Positions 3,558 to 58,787 of a stretch of 61,724 nucleotides of DNA are shown here, one piece after another. The stretch is from Candidatus Magasanikiibacteriota bacterium (GTDB lineage Bacteria; Patescibacteriota; Patescibacteriia; Magasanikbacterales; UBA922): the NCBI GenBank assembly GCA_014729395.1, contig WJJZ01000004.1, forward strand, positions 1 through 61,724. The letters run 5' to 3'. Each line of letters starts with the position of its first letter. Position 1 is the first letter of the stretch. The notes under the pieces are model-generated. The model ran no database searches, was not told the origin of the DNA, and was given only the letters and a program-made list of their open reading frames with translations. The position numbers and the translations under genes were made by a program.

Positions 3558-3977
3558 ATGTTCAGAAAAAATAAAGCACTGTTTATCAGTGCAACCATAT
3601 TTATCTCCGGAGATAATCCGGATAATTTTGAAGTTAACGTCGATGCGGCCAATCGAATTTTTGATTGGGCGGCCAATGGTTTTTTGATTGTTTCAATTAT
3701 ATATAGCGGGGATTATAAAGATACCGATACGCGCAGAAAAATCAAAGAAAAAATTGATTTAGCTTTTAAAAAATATTGTAATTTCAAATTGGATAATTTA
3801 AAAATCATGTGTGTTTCAGATTTGAAAGATCCGGATCCTTTTTGGGATTTGATGAGAAAGTCCGCTGTGAATGCCAGTCGTAGTTTATTGGTTGCAGAAA
3901 CCGAGCGGGGGGAAGAGTTGGCCCGGATCATTGATGTTCGCTTTGAATATGCAAGAGACTTTTTACGACATATGTAA
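3558..3977 (+). CDS. hypothetical protein (139 aa)
   Basis: GGGAGG (3545-3550) lies 7 nt before ATG 3558. The track ORF from 3492 reads through the hairpin, so I trimmed it. I recognise no family. Confidence 0.6.
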   Translation: MFRKNKALFISATIFISGDNPDNFEVNVDAANRIFDWAANGFLIVSIIYSGDYKDTDTRRKIKEKIDLAFKKYCNFKLDNLKIMCVSDLKDPDPFWDLMRKSAVNASRSLLVAETERGEELARIIDVRFEYARDFLRHM

Positions 3978-8892: not shown

Positions 8893-8913
8893 TTTTCTGG
8901 TATAATAAACACA

Positions 8914-8978
8914 ATCATAAATCATAAATCCTAATTCATAAAATATAAATTTATGATTTTAGACTTTAGATTTTAGAC
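8914..8978. repeat. tandem heptamer arrays (ATCATAA-type x5, TTTAGAC-type x3)
   Basis: In 7-nt register: ATCATAA ATCATAA ATCCTAA TTCATAA AATATAA (8914-8948), then TTTAGAC TTTAGAT TTTAGAC (8958-8978). AATCATAAAT and ATTTATGATT can pair. Confidence 0.8.
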
Positions 8979-8986
8979 TTATTTTT

Positions 8987-9148
8987 ATGTCCGACAATTT
9001 TATTCGTCATCTCATTTCGTTTATTGGTACATTGATTGTTTTGTTGGCCTATTTTTCCGGTTATATATCAGGAAGTAATGGCTGGTGGTGGACAGCAATC
9101 GGTATGTTGATTTTTTATGTCATAGTTTTTAAGCTGGTTGAAGCTTAA
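8987..9148 (+). CDS. small two-helix membrane protein (53 aa), absent from the ORF track
   Basis: I translated ATG 8987 to TAA 9146-9148 by hand: MSDNFIRHLISFIGTLIVLLAYFSGYISGSNGWWWTAIGMLIFYVIVFKLVEA. It has two hydrophobic helices and ends 9 nt before the next gene. Confidence 0.5.
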   Translation: MSDNFIRHLISFIGTLIVLLAYFSGYISGSNGWWWTAIGMLIFYVIVFKLVEA

Positions 9149-9157
9149 ACTTTCTTT

Positions 9158-10582
9158 ATGAATGTAGAAATTGGAATTTTTTCTTTCAATTTAGGTAGTC
9201 TTAGCGACTTTTTTGCACAAGGTATATTTCAAATCATTATTCAGTTGCTTGCTATTTTTGGCTGGTTGGTACTGGCCGCTCTTTTGTTATTTGTAGCTTT
9301 GTTTTTTTATCAGGAATATAGACAGGAAAAATATACCAAAGACTGGAAATGGGTTGTCTTGGCTATAGATATTCCACCTTTAAATTTACAAACTCCAAAA
9401 GCGGTCGAGCAGATGTTTGCCCAACTGGCCGGAGCATTTGACCAGCCAAATATTGCTGACAAATTTTATTATGGCTATAAACAAAAATGGTTTAGTTTTG
9501 AGATCGTTAGTATTGAGGGTTATATCCAATTTTTAGTGCGTACGGAAGAAGCTTTTAGAGATTTGGTTGAAGCATCTATATACGCTCAGTATCCGGATGC
9601 TGAAATTACAGAAGTGGAGGATTATGTGAATGAGATTCCCGATTCCTATCCAAATGAAGAATATGATTTGTGGATGGCTGATTTTGGTCTGGAAGAAGAA
9701 GATTCATATCCGATAAGAACTTTTGATGATTTTATGGACAAAATTTCAAAAGATGATATTTTGAAAGACCCGATGAGTGCTTTTTTGGAAAGTTTTTCCA
9801 GAATTGGTCCGGGAGAACAAATGTGGTTTCAGATTTTATTGGAACCCATATCCAGTTCATGGAAGGAGCAGTCAATAAAAAAGGTCAAAGAGTTGATCGG
9901 TGACAAAAGTTTGGGGAGTACTGGCGGGAGTAAAGTGGCTGAATTTATTACCAGTGGATCCCTAAAAGCGATTGAATCGATTGGAGACCAAGTTTTTGGT
10001 AGGGAGGCCGGCGCTTCAAATGGAAATGAAATTGATCGAGATGCTCCAAATCAGCTACAGTACTTAACTCCGGGTCAGACCAAGTTGGTGGAAGCGATTG
10101 AAAATAAAATAAGTAAAATCGGTTTTAAAGTTAAGTTGCGTGGTGGCTATATCGCGCGTAAAGAAGTTTTCAAAGCGGAGAGAGGGGTAAATTTAATGAT
10201 TGGTGCTATTAACCAATATAATATTCCAAGCGCAAATTCAATACTTCCGAAATATGGTGTTGGTGCTTCATACTTCTTCAAAGACCAAAGAAAAGCCTAC
10301 AGAAAGAGATTGTTAATCAAGGCGTACAAAAAAAGAAAAATAGCCGTGGGAGCTAATCCTTTTATATTAAATATTGAAGAACTGGCGACGTTGTGGCATT
10401 TTCCCATGTCTCAAGTTAAAGCACCATTATTGCAAAAAACTCAGGCAAAACAAACCGAACCCCCGATTGGCTTGCCGGTTGAAGGTGTTCCGGAACCGGA
10501 AAAAGAAGAGGAGAGTGAAGAAGAAGGTTATCAAATTGATACCGGAGATGTTGGATTTAAAGAAGATGTTGAGTTTGGTTAA
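9158..10582 (+). CDS. conserved-looking membrane-anchored protein of unknown function
   Basis: 474 aa with an N-terminal TM region. 'FSFEIVSIEGYIQFLVRTEE..IYAQYPDAEITEVEDY' and 'LATLWHFP' resemble a CPR/archaeal family that I recall neighbouring FtsK/VirD4-like ATPases. I cannot verify that here. Confidence 0.6.
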   Translation: MNVEIGIFSFNLGSLSDFFAQGIFQIIIQLLAIFGWLVLAALLLFVALFFYQEYRQEKYTKDWKWVVLAIDIPPLNLQTPKAVEQMFAQLAGAFDQPNIADKFYYGYKQKWFSFEIVSIEGYIQFLVRTEEAFRDLVEASIYAQYPDAEITEVEDYVNEIPDSYPNEEYDLWMADFGLEEEDSYPIRTFDDFMDKISKDDILKDPMSAFLESFSRIGPGEQMWFQILLEPISSSWKEQSIKKVKELIGDKSLGSTGGSKVAEFITSGSLKAIESIGDQVFGREAGASNGNEIDRDAPNQLQYLTPGQTKLVEAIENKISKIGFKVKLRGGYIARKEVFKAERGVNLMIGAINQYNIPSANSILPKYGVGASYFFKDQRKAYRKRLLIKAYKKRKIAVGANPFILNIEELATLWHFPMSQVKAPLLQKTQAKQTEPPIGLPVEGVPEPEKEEESEEEGYQIDTGDVGFKEDVEFG

Positions 10583-25688: not shown

Positions 25689-25765
25689 TTCTCTCACATT
25701 TTAAAGAAATCCCTATTTATAGGGGTTTCTTGATTTTTAAGAAGGTTTTAGGGATAATACAGTGA

Positions 25766-25836
25766 ATTGGAGACTGGAGATTAGTGACTGGAGACTATTT
25801 GACTATAAAATCAATCTCTAGTCTCCAATCACCAGT
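25766..25836. repeat. inverted heptamer array (ATTGGAG/ACTGGAG vs CTCCAAT/CACCAGT), probable terminator
   Basis: ATTGGAG ACTGGAG ATTAGTG ACTGGAG (25766-25793) and CTCTAGT CTCCAAT CACCAGT (25816-25836), followed by TTTTTATTTTTT. Confidence 0.8.
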
Positions 25837-25869
25837 TTTTATTTTTTATCTAAATATTCTACTGTTCTT

Positions 25870-26991
25870 ATGAAGAATAGCAAAGAAAGAGTTCTAGTTG
25901 CCATGTCCGGCGGGGTGGATTCATCCGTGGCGGCTTTACTATTGAAAAAAGAAGGTTATGATGTGGCTGGAGCATTCATGATAAACTACGAAGAAGAGAG
26001 TGGGAGTTCGTTTACAGGGAGCAGCGTAGCGGAGTCATGTTGGCGCGGGGATTACCGGGACGCTATTCGGGTGGCAGCTAAACTGGAAATTCCACTTATA
26101 AAATTGGACTTTAGAAAAGAATACAAGAAGTTTGTTTTGGATTATATGTTTTCTGAATATAAAACCGGTAGAACGCCAAATCCGGATGTTTTGTGTAATA
26201 AATTTATTAAATTCGGTGCGTGGTTGAAGAAGGCGAGGAAGCTCGGCTTCGAGAAGTTGGCCACTGGACATTATGCACAGCTTCGAAAAAGTAAGACTGG
26301 AGATTGGAGACTGGAGACTGGGAAAGATAAAGAAAAAGACCAGACTTATTTTTTGCACCAGTTAAATCAGGAGCAGTTAAGTCATGCTCTATTTCCAATT
26401 GGTGAATATACCAAAAAAGAAGTTAGAAATTTGGCTAAAAAATTCAATCTTGCAACAGCAGAAAAAGAAGAAAGTATGGGGATTTGTTTTGTGGGTGAAG
26501 TGCCGATGAAAGATTTTTTGATGCAGGAAATTAAATCAAAGCCTGGAAAGATTGTAACTTCAGATGCTGAGGTGATAGGTGAACATGAGGGATTAGCTTT
26601 TTATACTGTTGGCCAGCGCCATATAGGAGTTCACAGTTCACAGCCAACAGTTCACAGTCGGCAAGCGATAAATGACAGTAGACCTTTGTATGTCGTTGAT
26701 AAAAGGTTGGATACTAATGAACTCGTTGTTGGTTTTAAAGATGATCCTTTGTTATTTAAGCAAAAAATTGAAGTTAGTGAAGTAAACTGGATCGCTGGAC
26801 AGCCACCCAAATTTCCCCTAAAATGTAAAGTAAGACTTAGACATAGACAAACTCCTCAAAGAGCGGTGATCAGTGAGCGGGGAACAAAAATTTTGATAGA
26901 ATTTAAAAATGCACAACGAGCGGTAACCCCCGGGCAGTTTGCGGTTTTTTATAAAGGAGATGAATGTTTGGGGGGTGGAGTGATTTTGTAA
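25870..26991 (+). CDS. mnmA: tRNA 2-thiouridine(34) synthase MnmA
   Basis: PP-loop 'VAMSGGVDSSVAA', plus 'PNPDVLCN', 'ATGHYA', 'KDQTYFL' and 'ESMGICF'. Confidence 0.95.
   Translation: MKNSKERVLVAMSGGVDSSVAALLLKKEGYDVAGAFMINYEEESGSSFTGSSVAESCWRGDYRDAIRVAAKLEIPLIKLDFRKEYKKFVLDYMFSEYKTGRTPNPDVLCNKFIKFGAWLKKARKLGFEKLATGHYAQLRKSKTGDWRLETGKDKEKDQTYFLHQLNQEQLSHALFPIGEYTKKEVRNLAKKFNLATAEKEESMGICFVGEVPMKDFLMQEIKSKPGKIVTSDAEVIGEHEGLAFYTVGQRHIGVHSSQPTVHSRQAINDSRPLYVVDKRLDTNELVVGFKDDPLLFKQKIEVSEVNWIAGQPPKFPLKCKVRLRHRQTPQRAVISERGTKILIEFKNAQRAVTPGQFAVFYKGDECLGGGVIL
26296..26323. repeat. ACTGGAG-family heptamer array (4 units) inside mnmA
   Basis: ACTGGAG ATTGGAG ACTGGAG ACTGGGA, translated in frame as part of 'KTGDWRLETGK'. 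Confidence 0.85.
26630..26657. repeat. TTCACAG-family heptamer array (4 units) inside mnmA
   Basis: TTCACAG TTCACAG CCAACAG TTCACAG, translated in frame as part of 'VHSSQPTVHS'. Confidence 0.85.
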
Positions 26992-40428: not shown

Positions 40429-41930
40429 GTCTGCATATTGGTAGACCTTTTTTTTATTCTATTGAATATTCTATACAGAGTTGTCACAAGTTTTTCAAAA
40501 ATATTTGCGGGTTTGAGAGCAAGAGATAATATTAATACAATAAAAATAATTCCAAAGGTGTGAAATAGAGCCGGTGTAGTTATGTTTATTACGAGCATAG
40601 CGATAATTGCAGCCAAAGAACCGACATAAAAATCATGCCAATCACTTACAAATTTAATTTTATTTATTATTCTTGTTGTGGAAAAAATGTAGATTGCTAA
40701 TAAAATTATTGACCCAATGACACCTAGTTCGGCTAGCATTTCCAAGTAACCCCAGTCATATTGGCCGGTGGTTGTGTAATCGTTGCTGTTAGGGTTTAGA
40801 TATGTAAAGCTTGAGCCAAGTCCATTTCCCAGCATTGGGTTTTCACTAATTTGTTCCAATATACTTGGTAATATTATCATGCGAGTGGCCGAGCTCGTTT
40901 CTATTTTAGGACTGGCAAGGCTGGCCAATCTTACGCCAAATAATTCCCAGCCCAATGTTTTTCCGTTACTGGAAACTATTGAAAAACTTGTAAAAATTAA
41001 AACCACGAGACCAATGGTTGTACACGAAACAATAAACCACCTTGAAGCAATATGTTTGTATTTTAAAATTAACAATCCGACAAAAAGTGCCAGTAAAAAA
41101 GACCTTGATAAATTTAATACCAAAATAATAATAGATAAAAATAGTAAAATCCTCCACATTTTGTGATGGTGTTCATCACGCATTAAAAGGGATGAAATGA
41201 TCAATATTATTGGAGCAATCAATAAATGTTCGGGAAGGACAATCCTGAAAAAACCATTACCCATGTTTGTAATTTTGCCGTTTGCCGCATCTCTGAACCA
41301 TTTGTAAAAAGGTTCTTGCAACTCAACCATTCCGCTGGAAAACATGATAAAAGTAAAAATCGAAAAAAGCGCTGATCCGATAATAAATACAATTATCAAT
41401 CTTATGAAATATTCATAATTGTTTTTTTTGTTTAACAAGTGATAAGTTGGAAATACTAATGGCAGGTAAAGATATGGAATCAAATCTTGAATAATATGTT
41501 TATAATTATTTCCATTAATTATACCGTTTATACTGGCAAACATTAAAAATAAATAGAGAATAATTAAAATTATCGTAAAATATTTGTTAATTAAAAAACG
41601 CTTTCTGAACTCACGCTTCCAAATTATATGATTTGTCCACAAAAATAAAAAAATACTAATTAAAAGTGTCCTTATGGAGAGGCCTGCAAATTCCAAATAG
41701 TTACCCGAACCTCCTAAAAAAATTTCTCCAATTAAGATAAAAAAAGCCCAATCAGGGTTTTTAAAATATACAATCCCAAAAAACATTAGTAAGCTAAAAA
41801 CCAGAATTCCTTGTATAATCAAATGATTGTGAAAAGAAAACGAAACAAATCTTATTGTAAAAAAAACCAGTAGTAAAAATAAGGTTTGCCAGTTTAGAAA
41901 GATGGATTTAGTTGTGAGACGGTTAAGCAT
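40425..41930 (-). CDS. O-antigen ligase/polymerase (Wzy_C-like) membrane protein
   Basis: 501 aa, polytopic. 'LNLSRSFLLALFVGLLIL' is followed by a large loop, as expected for the family. Confidence 0.75.
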   Translation of the reverse strand: MLNRLTTKSIFLNWQTLFLLLVFFTIRFVSFSFHNHLIIQGILVFSLLMFFGIVYFKNPDWAFFILIGEIFLGGSGNYLEFAGLSIRTLLISIFLFLWTNHIIWKREFRKRFLINKYFTIILIILYLFLMFASINGIINGNNYKHIIQDLIPYLYLPLVFPTYHLLNKKNNYEYFIRLIIVFIIGSALFSIFTFIMFSSGMVELQEPFYKWFRDAANGKITNMGNGFFRIVLPEHLLIAPIILIISSLLMRDEHHHKMWRILLFLSIIILVLNLSRSFLLALFVGLLILKYKHIASRWFIVSCTTIGLVVLIFTSFSIVSSNGKTLGWELFGVRLASLASPKIETSSATRMIILPSILEQISENPMLGNGLGSSFTYLNPNSNDYTTTGQYDWGYLEMLAELGVIGSIILLAIYIFSTTRIINKIKFVSDWHDFYVGSLAAIIAMLVINITTPALFHTFGIIFIVLILSLALKPANIFEKLVTTLYRIFNRIKKRSTNMQT

Positions 41931-41944
41931 GAATTTTAAATTTA

Positions 41945-42020
41945 AAATTTTGAATTTCGAATCAATTTTAAATTTATTAATTAAAAAATTAACAATTCAA
42001 TCAAAATTTAAAATTCGAAA
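41945..42020. repeat. AT-rich inverted-repeat element, copy 1 (shares both arms with 58043-58177)
   Basis: AAATTTTGAATTT (41945-41957) and AATTCAATCAAAATT (41994-42008) recur identically at 58056-58068 and 58142-58156. Confidence 0.7.
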
Positions 42021-42952: not shown

Positions 42953-43026
42953 AGTAGATGATAAGTGATAAGTGATAAGTGATAGCTTTTCTTAGTAAAA
43001 CTATCACTTATCATCTATCATTTATT
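42953..43026. repeat. inverted heptamer array (GATAAGT x4 vs ACTTATC/ATCTATC) between def and fmt
   Basis: GATAAGT GATAAGT GATAAGT GATAGCT (42960-42987), 18-nt loop, then ACTTATC ATCTATC ATTTATT (43006-43026). Confidence 0.85.
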
Positions 43027-43082
43027 ATTTAAAATATCTCCAAAATCAATTTTTTTATCTCGTCTCCTGGGTCAGACACTTA

Positions 43083-49388: not shown

Positions 49389-50105
49389 ATGAAAGGTATA
49401 ATTCTTTCACATACGAGAATGGGTGCAACCAACTCCGGTTTTTGCACCAACATTCTAGTTGAAGATGGTAATGGAAATCCTATTCAAATAAGGCCCAGAT
49501 CTCTTCCGAACAATAATCTGTTTATTTGCTCATTTGGAATGAATGAAAATCAGATGATGAAGAAGTGGCGGCCTGGCTGTTGGGTGAGACTTCCCAAATT
49601 CAAGTACGTTGTTGGGGAATATCGAAGACCAACACATCCTGAAGATGTAATTTTGGATCACTATGAGGGAGTGGAGGTTGATTTTGAAAAAATAGTGAAG
49701 AAATCATCCTACATTGAATTAATAGAACCTTTTTGCTATAGGGGGATTGATGAACTGTTTCCTGATGTCAGGATTAAGCGGGGTTCTTTTAATAAATGGT
49801 ATGTACCGGGGGGTCTAAATTTAAATCATTCGGTTGGCTATATCTACTCTAAAGAGGTAAAAATATATGTAGATTTTGATAAGTTTCGAGCTAGAATAAC
49901 CGATGAGAATGGCAATATTATCAATGGGCCTCTCAAAGATGAACATTTGCTAAGAAAACTGAAAAAAAAGAAAGAAAAAATCCAACAGAAATCATTGATA
50001 TATAAAAACAAATTGTTAAGGCTGTCTCTCGCAAACCCTTGGAACGAGGGAAATAGAATGGGTGAGTCTCGTTGTTTTGTGATGGTGAGTCATATTGTTA
50101 AGTGA
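49389..50105 (+). CDS. hypothetical protein, translationally coupled to the DUF488 gene
   Basis: 238 aa. AAGGAG sits inside the upstream gene's last codons, 3 nt separate its stop from this start, and the ORF ends in TGA. I have only a weak recollection of a similar 'dual-OB' family ('..IRP...', 'LRLSLANPW....CFVMVSHI'). Confidence 0.6.
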   Translation: MKGIILSHTRMGATNSGFCTNILVEDGNGNPIQIRPRSLPNNNLFICSFGMNENQMMKKWRPGCWVRLPKFKYVVGEYRRPTHPEDVILDHYEGVEVDFEKIVKKSSYIELIEPFCYRGIDELFPDVRIKRGSFNKWYVPGGLNLNHSVGYIYSKEVKIYVDFDKFRARITDENGNIINGPLKDEHLLRKLKKKKEKIQQKSLIYKNKLLRLSLANPWNEGNRMGESRCFVMVSHIVK

Positions 50106-50189: not shown

Positions 50190-50894
50190 ATGAAAAAAGG
50201 AAAATTATATATTGTTGCTACGCCAATCGGAAATTTGGACGACATCACAATTCGTGCCATAGACACAATGAAAAGTGTTGATTTTGTAGCTTGCGAAGAT
50301 ACCAGAGTAACCAGAAAAATTTTGAATCATTACAAAATAGAAACACCAACGATTAGTTACCATCAACATAGCGGTGAGTCAAAGATGTTGGAAATTAGAG
50401 ATTTGTTGCTTTCCGGCAAAAATATCGCATTAGTAACGGATGCCGGTACTCCCGGAATTAGTGATCCGGGGAATAAGTTAATCGAGTTCATAGTTCATAG
50501 TTCACAGTTCTCAGACATTGTTCCTGTTCCGGGAGCTTCGGCAGTTACGGCAGCTTTGTCAGTATCAGGATTTCCTACAGACAAGTTTGTATTTATGGGG
50601 TTCCCGCCACATAAAAAAAGAAGAAAACAATTTTTTCAAGAAATTGCAGACAATAAATACACAACGGTTTTTTACGAATCATCGCATAGAATAAAAAAAG
50701 CTCTGCAAAATTTGGCAGAGGTGTTGGTTGAGGAAAGACAGTCCGCCTCCGCTAAAGCTTCGGCGAGACAAGTGTGTGTATGTCGTGAACTTACAAAAAA
50801 ATTTGAGAGCATTTACAGGGGTTCTGTGTCCGAGGTTGTAGGTATGGATATTACAGAAAAAGGGGAGTTCGTAGTTATAGTACGTAGTCAATAA
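50190..50894 (+). CDS. rsmI: 16S rRNA (cytidine1402-2'-O)-methyltransferase
   Basis: 'LYIVATPIGNL.DIT.RA......VD.VACEDTR.T..IL', 'DAGTPGISDPG', 'PGASA'. Confidence 0.9.
   Translation: MKKGKLYIVATPIGNLDDITIRAIDTMKSVDFVACEDTRVTRKILNHYKIETPTISYHQHSGESKMLEIRDLLLSGKNIALVTDAGTPGISDPGNKLIEFIVHSSQFSDIVPVPGASAVTAALSVSGFPTDKFVFMGFPPHKKRRKQFFQEIADNKYTTVFYESSHRIKKALQNLAEVLVEERQSASAKASARQVCVCRELTKKFESIYRGSVSEVVGMDITEKGEFVVIVRSQ
50487..50514. repeat. TTCACAG-family heptamer array (4 units) inside rsmI
   Basis: TTCATAG TTCATAG TTCACAG TTCTCAG, translated in frame as 'FIVHSSQFS'. Confidence 0.85.
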
Positions 50895-57601: not shown

Positions 57602-57674
57602 CAACAGTTCACAGTGATCAGTTCACAGTTAGCAGGATTATATCCTCTGTTGGTTGTGAACTGAAAACTGCGAA
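57601..57674. repeat. inverted heptamer array (TTCACAG family) between atpB and atpE
   Basis: ACAACAG TTCACAG TGATCAG TTCACAG TTAGCAG (57601-57635), 11-nt loop, then CTGTTGG TTGTGAA CTGAAAA CTGCGAA (57647-57674). It begins on the last base of the atpB TAA. Confidence 0.85.
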
Positions 57675-58042: not shown

Positions 58043-58177
58043 AATTTTGGATTTCAAATTTTGAATTTTGAGTAAATTTCAAATGATTTAATTTTAAACT
58101 TGTCCTGAAAGTTTTGAATGATTAATTCATTAGTAATTAAAAATTCAATCAAAATTCATAATTCAAAATTCATAATT
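58043..58177. repeat. AT-rich inverted heptamer element, copy 2 (AATTTTG vs CAAAATT/CATAATT)
   Basis: AATTTTG GATTTCA AATTTTG AATTTTG (58043-58070) and CAAAATT CATAATT CAAAATT CATAATT (58150-58177). Confidence 0.75.
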
Positions 58178-58190
58178 AAATTATAATAAT

Positions 58191-58787
58191 ATGCCAGAAA
58201 ATACTGAACATACAAGTGAAGTACTTCATGAAGACCAGGTAGTTACTGAAACTCATGAAGAAGTTAGTCATTCTACCGCCGGCGATGATAGTGTTTTGGC
58301 TTCATTGGGTATAAATGGTCAGTTATTTGCTTTTCAGTTGCTAAACTTTGCCATTGTAGCGGCAATTTTATGGTTTTTGATATTGAAACCACTGACTAAG
58401 AAAATGGAAGAACGTAAAAAAATGATTGATGACAGTATTGAAAATACTCAAAAAGTGGAGACAAAGTTGCAGATGAGCGAGCAAAAATATCAAGAAAAAA
58501 TTGATGAAGCTAAAATGGAAGCAAATAAGGTAATTGAAAAAGCTCAAAAAGAAGCAGAAAGCTTGAAAGCAGATATGAGAGAAAAAGCCAAGAAAGAAAT
58601 AGAAACCTTAATTAACCAGGCAAAGCGAAATATCCAAATAGAAAAAGAAGACATGGTAGAAGAGTTGAAAAAAGAAACCGCTGATTTAATAGCGGTAGCT
58701 GTTGAAAAAATTATTGATCAAAAGTTGGATGCGAAAAAAGACCGTGAGTTGATAGAAAAATCAATCAGTGATTTACAAACTAAATAA
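58191..58787 (+). CDS. atpF: F0 ATP synthase subunit b with acidic N-terminal extension
   Basis: TM helix 'FQLLNFAIVAAILWFLILKPL', then a long charged helix. Confidence 0.88.
   Translation: MPENTEHTSEVLHEDQVVTETHEEVSHSTAGDDSVLASLGINGQLFAFQLLNFAIVAAILWFLILKPLTKKMEERKKMIDDSIENTQKVETKLQMSEQKYQEKIDEAKMEANKVIEKAQKEAESLKADMREKAKKEIETLINQAKRNIQIEKEDMVEELKKETADLIAVAVEKIIDQKLDAKKDRELIEKSISDLQTK

Follow-up and report, generated by a model that had tools for sequence, protein, structure and literature searches.

How does a tandem repeat with a seven-nucleotide unit come to be translated within a conserved tRNA-modification enzyme, and how is it related to a hairpin made of the same words just upstream of the gene? 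We address this question in a 61,724-nucleotide (nt) stretch of DNA from a Candidatus Magasanikiibacteriota bacterium (GenBank assembly GCA_014729395.1, contig WJJZ01000004.1, positions 1 to 61,724 of the forward strand), analysed as a whole and hereafter called the window; the organism belongs to the candidate phyla radiation (CPR, or Patescibacteria). The gene mnmA (25870..26991, plus strand) encodes tRNA 2-thiouridine(34) synthase as an intact open reading frame (ORF) of 373 amino acids (aa), and carries in frame, at 26296..26323 on the plus strand, a four-unit array of ACTGGAG-type heptamers. The reading that we favor, with a probability of about 0.62, is that this array is the coding member of a genome-wide set of heptanucleotide repeats resembling the short tandemly repeated repetitive (STRR) sequences, which would originate and be kept uniform through slippage or template switching, becoming fixed only at permissive sites.

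The units of the array start at positions 26296 (ACTGGAG), 26303 (ATTGGAG), 26310 (ACTGGAG) and 26317 (ACTGGGA). They are translated from T143 to G151 (TGDWRLETG), plus the first base of the K152 codon, within the peptide KSKTGDWRLETGKDK. An earlier, sequence-only reading of this DNA had given the same sequence, coordinates, frame and peptide, all of which proved exact on re-reading. Tandem Repeats Finder assigns the tract a period of 7 with 4.0 copies and 90% matches (26294-26321), and its four units carry three mismatches. Because 7 equals 2x3+1, each of three consecutive units falls in a different frame, so that ACTGGAG x3 translates to TGDWRLE, a peptide that matches the MnmA family pattern aromatic-x-L-x-x-G. 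The bare count of ACTGGAG in the window is unremarkable (4 against 2.9 expected), and all four exact copies are confined to the coding array and to the upstream hairpin at 25766-25836. As a 14-mer double unit with at most two mismatches, the word occurs 6 times where 0.16 occurrences are expected (0/100 shuffles).

Arrays of this period are found throughout the window. Requiring at least 80% self-identity at lag p over three units, with low-complexity sequence removed, we detected eight period-7 arrays, whereas 100 dinucleotide shuffles contained 0.01 on average; the same criterion applied to the window at periods 6 and 8-12 returned no array. A period-7 excess is also found in related loci. 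The window, whose G+C content is 35%, holds the word families ACTGGAG, CAGTTCA, AATCATA, TTTAGAC, TGATAAG and GAATTTT/AATTTTG, spread over about seven intergenic loci as opposed to three coding arrays, two of them in mnmA and one in an RsmI-like gene. Most of the intergenic arrays are inverted pairs of a single word, which fold as long hairpins. With at least three head-to-tail units, a period-7 excess and several, mostly intergenic words, the locus has the structure that defines a heptanucleotide simple sequence repeat (SSR) family.

The hairpin nearest to the flagged array lies immediately upstream of mnmA (25766-25836) and has a predicted minimum free energy of -30 kcal/mol (z -4.6). Its left arm (25766..25796, plus strand), ATTGGAG ACTGGAG ATTAGTG ACTGGAG ACT, has the orientation of the coding array; its right arm (25812..25836, plus strand) reads ACTGGTG ATTGGAG ACTAGAG ATTG in reverse complement and ends 33 nt before the ATG. 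A T-rich run, TTTTTATTTTTTAT (25837..25850, plus strand), follows directly, 20 nt before the mnmA ATG. The zinc-ribbon gene upstream has a terminator-like stem-loop with a T tail of its own (25704..25731, plus strand), followed by a -35/-10-like site (25730-25758) between that terminator and the heptamer hairpin. It is therefore unlikely that the heptamer hairpin terminates the upstream gene, and hairpin and T-run are most simply read as part of a putative mnmA leader.

The two arrays are closely tied. That coding and non-coding arrays share the same 7-nt words was confirmed: the hairpin arms are about 90% identical to the coding blocks, with 22/24 identical positions between left arm 25773-25796 and coding 26296-26319, and 22/25 between the reverse complement of the right arm (25812-25836) and coding 26296-26320 (both read by eye). 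The unit order ACT-ATT-ACT-ACT is common to the leader blocks and the coding array. Within the coding sequence (CDS), the ATT unit amounts to a synonymous GAC-to-GAT change, and it is missing from the orthologous array of L081, one of the seven loci from relatives (L081-L087) whose DNA we compared. A unit order shared with the leader and missing from L081 fits a templated exchange of blocks: since the window and L081 lineages diverged, a block of at least 24 nt appears to have passed between leader hairpin and coding array, by gene conversion or template switching. The proposal that such arrays can be templated between coding and non-coding DNA is thus plausible. Related cases are seen in relatives. 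In L085, an AATTTTG/GAATTTY array (9945-9974) ends about 25 nt before the mnmA ATG of a gene whose own array is made of GAATTTC, and in L084 the word GAAACTG is found in two loops of MnmA (loops 1 and 3 below), where it encodes KLETG each time. Nor is the reuse of words merely local, since CAGTTCA recurs at 26.6, 50.5 and 57.6 kb of the window.

The gene order Band_7, zinc-ribbon (zf_Tbcl_2), mnmA is kept in several relatives, most clearly in L083 and L085. A relatively G+C-rich and ORF-poor segment of about 320 nt in L083 (5620-5940), flanked by a terminator-like hairpin on one side and by the promoter region of mnmA on the other, looks like a candidate structured non-coding RNA.

What does the flagged array encode? 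The protein is a typical MnmA, with Pfam domains PF03054, PF20259 and PF20258, and its residues 3-372 match solved MnmA structures (9hlv, 2hma) at an E value of 1e-95. In an alignment of 30 homologues, the PP-loop SGGVDS (S13-S18) is invariant and the catalytic C109 and C206 are conserved. The closest MnmA among 5.8 billion proteins is 73% identical, and the cluster of the window protein has a single member; the nearest named relatives of MnmA, of RsmI and of the adjacent CCA-adding enzyme are Candidatus Magasanikbacteria or Patescibacteria. The flagged segment aligns with the solved structures without gaps (KTGDWRLETGKD against EDGTVHMLRGVD). In the 30-homologue alignment, the length of this loop is identical in the two closest homologues, P0002 (73%) and P0003 (65%), and L148 and D153 are invariant. 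The GHY-to-KDQ loop of the window protein (hereafter loop 1) has 20 aa, which is the median of array-free loops among 118 homologues. An AlphaFold2 model of the protein has a mean predicted local distance difference test (pLDDT) score of 86, with strands at residues 136-140 and 146-150 and a mean of 95 over residues 141-150. According to this model, the array encodes the turn and the second strand of the canonical beta-hairpin that precedes KDQTYFL, including the invariant Leu148. An insertion is ruled out by the gap-free alignment and by a loop length equal to that of the closest relatives, so the earlier view of this array as an extra piece placed in a variable loop does not hold.

The same site carries related words in relatives. 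Loop 1 of L081 (P0003, 65%) reads ACTGGAA ACTGGAT ACTTGAA ACTGGGG, and that of L082 (P0002, 73%) reads CCTGGGA ATTATTT ATTAGAG ACTGGAA, without periodicity. In L083 (P0021), GAAACTG GAAACTA GAAACTA is followed by AATTTCC x4, and in L084 (P0118), GAAACTT GAAACTA GAAACTG is followed, after a 14-nt loop, by AGTTTCC x3.5. L085 (P0006) has GAATTTC arrays, L086 (P0093) has CGAAACT x4 and then CGAGTAT x4, and L087 (P0018) has AAATTTT arrays. GAAACTG is a rotation of ACTGGAA and differs by one base from the ACTGGAG of the window. Arrays of the (G/A)AACTG type occupy the same mnmA site in relatives just 60-65% identical. In some relatives, the array has expanded to an in-frame inverted pair that lengthens loop 1 by about 18-21 aa. 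L083, L084 and L086 have gained an in-frame peptide at loop 1, unlike the flagged array of the window, and the predicted hairpins within the CDS reach -31 kcal/mol (z -6.4) in L084 and -27.6 kcal/mol in L086. Loops 2 and 3 of the relatives' mnmA genes likewise carry arrays. Beyond these loci, Moranbacteria, Parcubacteria and other CPR lineages have loop-1 arrays made of their own words; the Bacteroidetes and Firmicutes mnmA genes that we compared have no loop-1 array.

Is the periodicity a by-product of the peptide? The sequence-only reading had proposed to look for close relatives that encode the same peptide with non-repetitive codons, and here the two closest loci give different answers. 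The loop-1 peptide of L082, PGNYLLETG, is similar to TGDWRLETG and is encoded by non-periodic codons. In L081, whose protein has diverged by 35%, synonymous sites have stayed periodic, which argues that the period is no chance by-product of a conserved peptide. Read by eye, every loop-1 unit of the window has a final G, where the units of L081 finish with A or T. Such a closer resemblance among the units of one genome than between units at orthologous positions would be a signature of concerted evolution, here at few sites. In a rough neighbour-joining tree, the window and L082 pair and are joined by L081, while L083, L084 and L086 fall elsewhere. Either the shared loop-1 word was present in the ancestor and was lost and replaced in the lineages between, or it was selected repeatedly; the latter is plausible because the three-frame translation N/D-W-K/R-L-E-T-G fits the aromatic-x-L-x-x-G pattern.

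A second array in the same gene behaves differently from the first. At 26629..26663 (plus strand), GTTCACA GTTCACA GCCAACA GTTCACA GTCGGCA is translated in frame as VHSSQPTVHSRQ in loop 2. Positions 26644-26664 are an exact surplus of 21 nt (three units, 7 aa) over the closest relative, L082; the loop corresponds to an 8-aa gap in the solved structures, and pLDDT falls below 50 at residues 256-266. This array is a true loop insertion. The expected change of length in 21-nt steps is thus seen at the second array, where these 21 nt are missing from L082, and the idea that word arrays are tolerated as extra pieces of surface loops, which fails for the canonical hairpin encoded by the flagged array, stands for 26629-26663. 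L081 has an orthologous array in loop 2 made of the same word (GTTCAGA/GTTCACA). Near the N-terminus of the protein, a further loop, EESGSSFTGSSVAES (25975-26055, residues 41-56), exceeds that of L082 by 11 aa and has a pLDDT below 50; a 7-nt phase is faintly visible in its DNA (GAGAGTG GGAGTTC GTTTACA GGGAGCA GCGTAGC GGAGTCA), perhaps the remains of an array that has decayed.

The third coding array lies in the RsmI-like ORF (50190-50894), where AGTTCAT AGTTCAT AGTTCAC AGTTCTC (50485..50512, plus strand) is translated in frame as EFIVHSSQF. It shares its word family and the peptide VHSSQ with loop 2 of MnmA. Heptamer-coded peptides were found in 7/120 RsmI homologues, all at residues ~96-101 and with no change in length.

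Arrays are not spread evenly over genes. At the DNA level, 20 arrays were counted in the 9.3 kb of mnmA sequence from eight Magasanik-type loci and 13 in their 123 kb of flanks; five of these eight loci were picked for repeat-like loop-1 peptides, a bias that affects the comparison at loop 1 but not at loops 2 and 3. An unbiased sample came from a survey of proteins, in which we searched for 9-aa windows that match the translation of a pure heptamer array at 8/9 positions or more. The 120 best MnmA hits (44.7k residues) gave 44 segments in 30 proteins, of which 29 lie in loop 1, 6 in loop 2 and 6 in loop 3. The same 120 proteins gave 0-1 segments when reversed or shuffled, and 0 and 5 segments in the period-5 and period-8 controls, respectively. 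Among 120 RsmI homologues (27.3k residues) there were seven segments, all at the site of the window's rsmI array. As a neutral control, 120 homologues of the adjacent CCA-adding enzyme (64k residues) gave none. The other ORFs of the Magasanik loci (35k residues) gave two, one of them a spurious N-terminal extension over an intergenic hairpin. MnmA is thus a strong and reproducible hot spot for heptamer arrays. The hot spot is not strictly one of period 7, given the five period-8-compatible segments in MnmA, where the RsmI and CCA-adding enzyme homologues have none, and an in-frame 8-nt array, GCACGACA x3, in mnmA loop 3 of L085 (P0006; 11009-11128).

Among 118 homologues, loop 1 has a median length of 32 aa when it contains a heptamer-like peptide and of 20 aa when it does not. 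These lengths do not proceed in 7-aa steps in this set, so that the proposed 21-nt length steps are not seen in loop 1. In contrast, the choice of the segment before KDQ[ST]YFL as a variable site was well founded, as it is the main place of heptamer-driven length change in the MnmA family.

We interpret these observations as follows. Arrays would arise, and stay homogeneous, through replication slippage or template switching, leading to their concerted evolution. In coding DNA, fixation would be possible solely through 21-nt steps or compensated +/-7 events, and this constraint would let arrays accumulate at a few structurally permissive sites. They might favor genes that are dispensable under some conditions, such as mnmA and rsmI, where a transient frameshift could be survived until it is compensated.

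Several points weigh against this interpretation. This mnmA site is free of arrays in the closest relative, L082 (73%), so continuous inheritance needs decay there, or else the word was acquired more than once. The relatives that bear GAAACTG are split over two clades of the rough tree, and their arrays may be convergent, under the aromatic-x-L-x-x-G constraint, instead of orthologous. Slippage is inferred and not observed, the nearest protein being 73% identical, and four imperfect units should slip rarely. The signal of concerted evolution comes from very few nucleotide positions. It is not obvious how plain tolerance would explain 44 segments in MnmA and none in the CCA-adding enzyme, which also varies in length, and the argument from the dispensability of mnmA and rsmI is inference only.

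Other explanations deserve consideration, and we take them in falling order of probability. A mobile hairpin comparable to the Rickettsia palindromic elements (RPEs) and built like the inverted arrays of the intergenic leaders may have inserted into loop 1 of an ancestral mnmA, in which case the window array would be its left arm, left over once right arm and loop had been lost by deletion, and the leader hairpin another copy. RPEs set a precedent for palindromic repeats carried in frame at protein surfaces (PMC10969869), and L084 and L086 do hold complete inverted-array hairpins in frame in loop 1. The coding array of the window, which has no RNA structure alone, behaves as an orphan arm would, and shares about 90% identity over 24-25 nt, as well as the unit order, with the leader arms. 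This scenario is nonetheless unlikely. There is no conserved dispersed element, as words differ by locus and by lineage, and we see no target-site duplications, terminal repeats or link to a transposase. Moreover, at mnmA loop 1 and at the RsmI site the arrays replace canonical sequence at constant length, which insertion alone does not explain.

A second possibility, somewhat less probable, is that mnmA is regulated in cis at the RNA level. The right arm of the leader would pair either with its left arm, forming the hairpin followed by a U-run, or with the coding array some 460 nt downstream, and the choice of partner would affect termination or translation of the mnmA mRNA, or its stability; in a variant of this idea, one heptamer-recognising factor would bind both arrays. 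The predicted energies are suggestive: the best RNA partner of the right arm in the entire window is the coding array, at -37.1 kcal/mol, ahead of its own left arm at -26 to -31 kcal/mol. A promoter-like site lies upstream of the hairpin and a U-run downstream, in L085, too, an array of the same word directly precedes mnmA, and a role in translational regulation has been proposed for start-adjacent TAACTGA heptamers (PMC4679880). However, five relatives (L081, L083, L084, L086 and L087) have a loop-1 array and no leader array, and a factor that recognises one sequence is hard to reconcile with words that change from lineage to lineage and from loop to loop of a single gene. During transcription, the leader hairpin would also be the first to form, and ribosomes would melt any pairing within the CDS. 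Finally, no Rfam family was detected at the gathering threshold in the whole 61.7-kb window, in which ARAGORN found no tRNA or tmRNA gene either.

MnmA modifies tRNA at s2U34 and RsmI modifies 16S rRNA at Cm1402, so both enzymes act on the decoding apparatus. This invites the broader speculation that the mnmA and rsmI arrays, together with the matching leader arm, are a built-in switch or sensor in CPR bacteria, a 'translational phasevarion' that would reversibly tune a translation-fidelity enzyme through +/-7 slippage, inversion or leader-CDS pairing; we consider both the switch and these routes to it highly improbable. Slightly more doubtful is the specific form in which mnmA is a contingency locus, reversibly turned off by +/-7 slippage or by inversion between the right arm of the leader and the coding array, which are 25-nt inverted repeats 460 bp apart, so that the decoding of Lys, Glu and Gln codons would shift in part of the population. 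Heptanucleotide coding repeats are a proven on/off switch in neuO, whose product has its full length if the repeat number is divisible by 3 (PMC13001214). In our data, the arrays are concentrated in two genes for non-ribosomal enzymes that modify the decoding apparatus, with several arrays per gene. Against such a switch, the mnmA genes of all eight Magasanik-type loci (8/8), and of the other CPR loci inspected, are in frame. The loci that failed a search for the ATGHY motif, and could have been taken for frameshifted alleles at the arrays, have ASGHY and are intact. The arrays have 3-5 imperfect units, far below the lengths typical of phase-variable SSRs, and no recombinase was identified, though no search aimed at recombinases was made.

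While each of these rivals faces specific counter-evidence, chance periodicity of the conserved peptide TGDWRLETG, to which the non-periodic DNA of L082 and the constrained residues L148 and G151 within the array might point, is excluded by the dinucleotide shuffles of the window, the period controls, the reversed and shuffled homologues, the unit order that recurs twice in the leader and the synonymous periodicity of L081.

The intergenic arrays of the window often lie close to start codons, those that fold as hairpins in 5' leaders stopping 3-35 nt short of them. An inverted TGATAAG/CTTATCA array (42953..43031, minus strand; predicted hairpin of -27.7 kcal/mol, z -6.5) ends 3 nt before the ATG of an fmt-like gene. 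On the plus strand, AATCATA x4 and TTTAGAC x3 (8912..8980), which fold weakly, stand between a -10-like box and the ATG at 8987, 6 nt from the array end, and inverted AATTTTG ... TCAAAAT/TCATAAT arrays (58043..58180; -29.9 kcal/mol) end about 10 nt before the ATG at 58191. A GAATTTT/AAATTTA array (41930..41962) abuts a minus-strand start codon at 41930, and an inverted CAGTTCA array (57604..57670, plus strand; -32 kcal/mol, z -5) belongs to the word family of mnmA loop 2 and rsmI. The genes preceded by start-proximal arrays include the fmt-like gene, a small membrane ORF and ATP-synthase genes. These arrays (8912-8980, 41930-41962, 42953-43031, 57604-57670 and 58043-58180) stop 0-10 nt ahead of the start codon, and the few bases between contain no obvious Shine-Dalgarno sequence.

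Cyanobacteria have been known since 1990 to carry heptanucleotide repeats, which were subsequently also seen in Xanthomonas and Beggiatoaceae and are regarded as essentially intergenic. The STRR words described by Mazel and colleagues in 1990 reportedly include STRR1 (CCCCAGT) and STRR3 (CAACAGT). An over-representation of heptamer SSRs, with inverted arrangements, is known in bacteria, for instance GGGAATC in Xanthomonas and GGGGAYT in Nostoc, and slippage has been proposed as the origin of bacterial heptamer SSRs (PMC4692102). The arrays described here resemble STRR sequences and other long heptanucleotide SSRs in their 7-nt unit and 3-6 copies per array, in the presence of several word families per genome, mostly intergenic and including some inverted pairs able to form stem-loops, in the over-representation of period 7 relative to neighbouring periods, and in slippage as the proposed origin. 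They differ from STRR in the strict sense by their host, a low-GC CPR bacterium and not a heterocystous cyanobacterium, and by their words, of which the ACTG core alone is shared. That core, ACTG/CAGT, occurs in some words of the window and its relatives as well as in STRR1, STRR3 and TAACTGA, and is present in 7/38 arrays (window, L081 and L083-L087) against 4% expected; as the arrays are not independent, this is a lead only. Unlike the G-rich heptamer SSRs, the words found here are not rich in G, so arguments based on G-quadruplexes do not apply.

The closest parallel to the start-proximal arrays is offered by the TAACTGA heptamers of Beggiatoaceae, Cyanobacteria and Bacteroidetes, of which 2-6 copies stand just upstream of start codons (MacGregor 2015, PMC4679880). 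These repeats often come without a Shine-Dalgarno sequence, and their function is open, translational control having been suggested; few copies lie inside ORFs, where the stop-free orientation alone is translated, as a 7-aa repeat (PMC4679880). Like them, the intergenic arrays of the window, though not the flagged coding array, end a few nucleotides before start codons. The TAACTGA system is dominated by one word in direct repeats without predicted RNA structure, whereas here many words are found, mostly in inverted pairs that fold at -28 to -32 kcal/mol. Copies of TAACTGA within ORFs are at protein termini or in hypothetical proteins, whereas ours recur in an internal loop of a conserved enzyme.

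Two further systems place repeats within proteins. RPEs occur in frame in protein-coding genes of Rickettsia (reviewed in PMC10969869), and our arrays resemble them: in both cases, unrelated housekeeping genes accommodate in-frame repeats that form hairpins yet agree with the fold of the protein; the loop-1 hairpins of L084 and L086 are a direct analogue. RPEs are about 150 bp long and have a conserved family sequence and peptide, whereas these arrays are 20-45 nt long and made of lineage-specific 7-nt words. The flagged array, unlike an RPE, adds no residues, and no conserved element of 100-150 bp is present. In neuO of E. coli K1, (5'-AAGACTC-3')n forms 3-53 perfect units at the 5' end of the gene, with slippage shown and 66% of genomes out of frame (PMC13001214). 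As in neuO, a heptamer repeat is translated within a gene, three units make a block of 7 aa and the frame is kept in 21-nt steps. The mnmA array differs in having four imperfect units in the middle of the gene, shorter than the tracts typical of contingency loci, and in that all observed alleles are in frame. We found no report of heptamer arrays in CPR bacteria or Patescibacteria, or of a recurrent in-frame hot spot in MnmA, in the open-access literature.

These observations provide a CPR lineage with its own rich set of heptamer words, in which the intergenic arrays are hairpins placed just before start codons and the coding arrays repeatedly build and rebuild the same surface loops of one housekeeping enzyme, in 25% of the nearest MnmA homologues as opposed to none for the CCA-adding enzyme. 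They offer a concrete and countable system in which to study how slippage of simple sequences creates diversity in protein loops in reduced genomes, and why certain genes are targeted. If the hot spot does reflect the regulation or switching of a tRNA-modification enzyme, it would represent a new kind of translation control in CPR bacteria. If tolerance alone is behind it, the system nevertheless shows clearly, in nature, how a non-triplet repeat can write protein in all three frames.

Finally, the window also contains two 23-nt direct repeats of two copies each, at 50061-50105 (GGTGAGTCACATTGTTAAGTGAT, just upstream of rsmI) and at 3645-3690 (GCGGCCAATCGAATTTTTGATTGG), both unrelated to the heptamer words. 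A metagenome-wide scan for AYTGGAG x3 matched at least 120 contigs (L088-L167 among them), mostly of 50-70% GC and unrelated to the window. None of the matches listed lay in mnmA and no closer relative surfaced from the scan. With at least 120 unrelated contigs carrying three units or more, AYTGGAG is ruled out as a lineage-specific word. These metagenomic AYTGGAG arrays often stand beside other heptamer arrays, as in L103, where ATTGGAG x4 is followed by GCTATCT x5, and multi-word heptamer arrays appear to be widespread well beyond the taxa in the literature.

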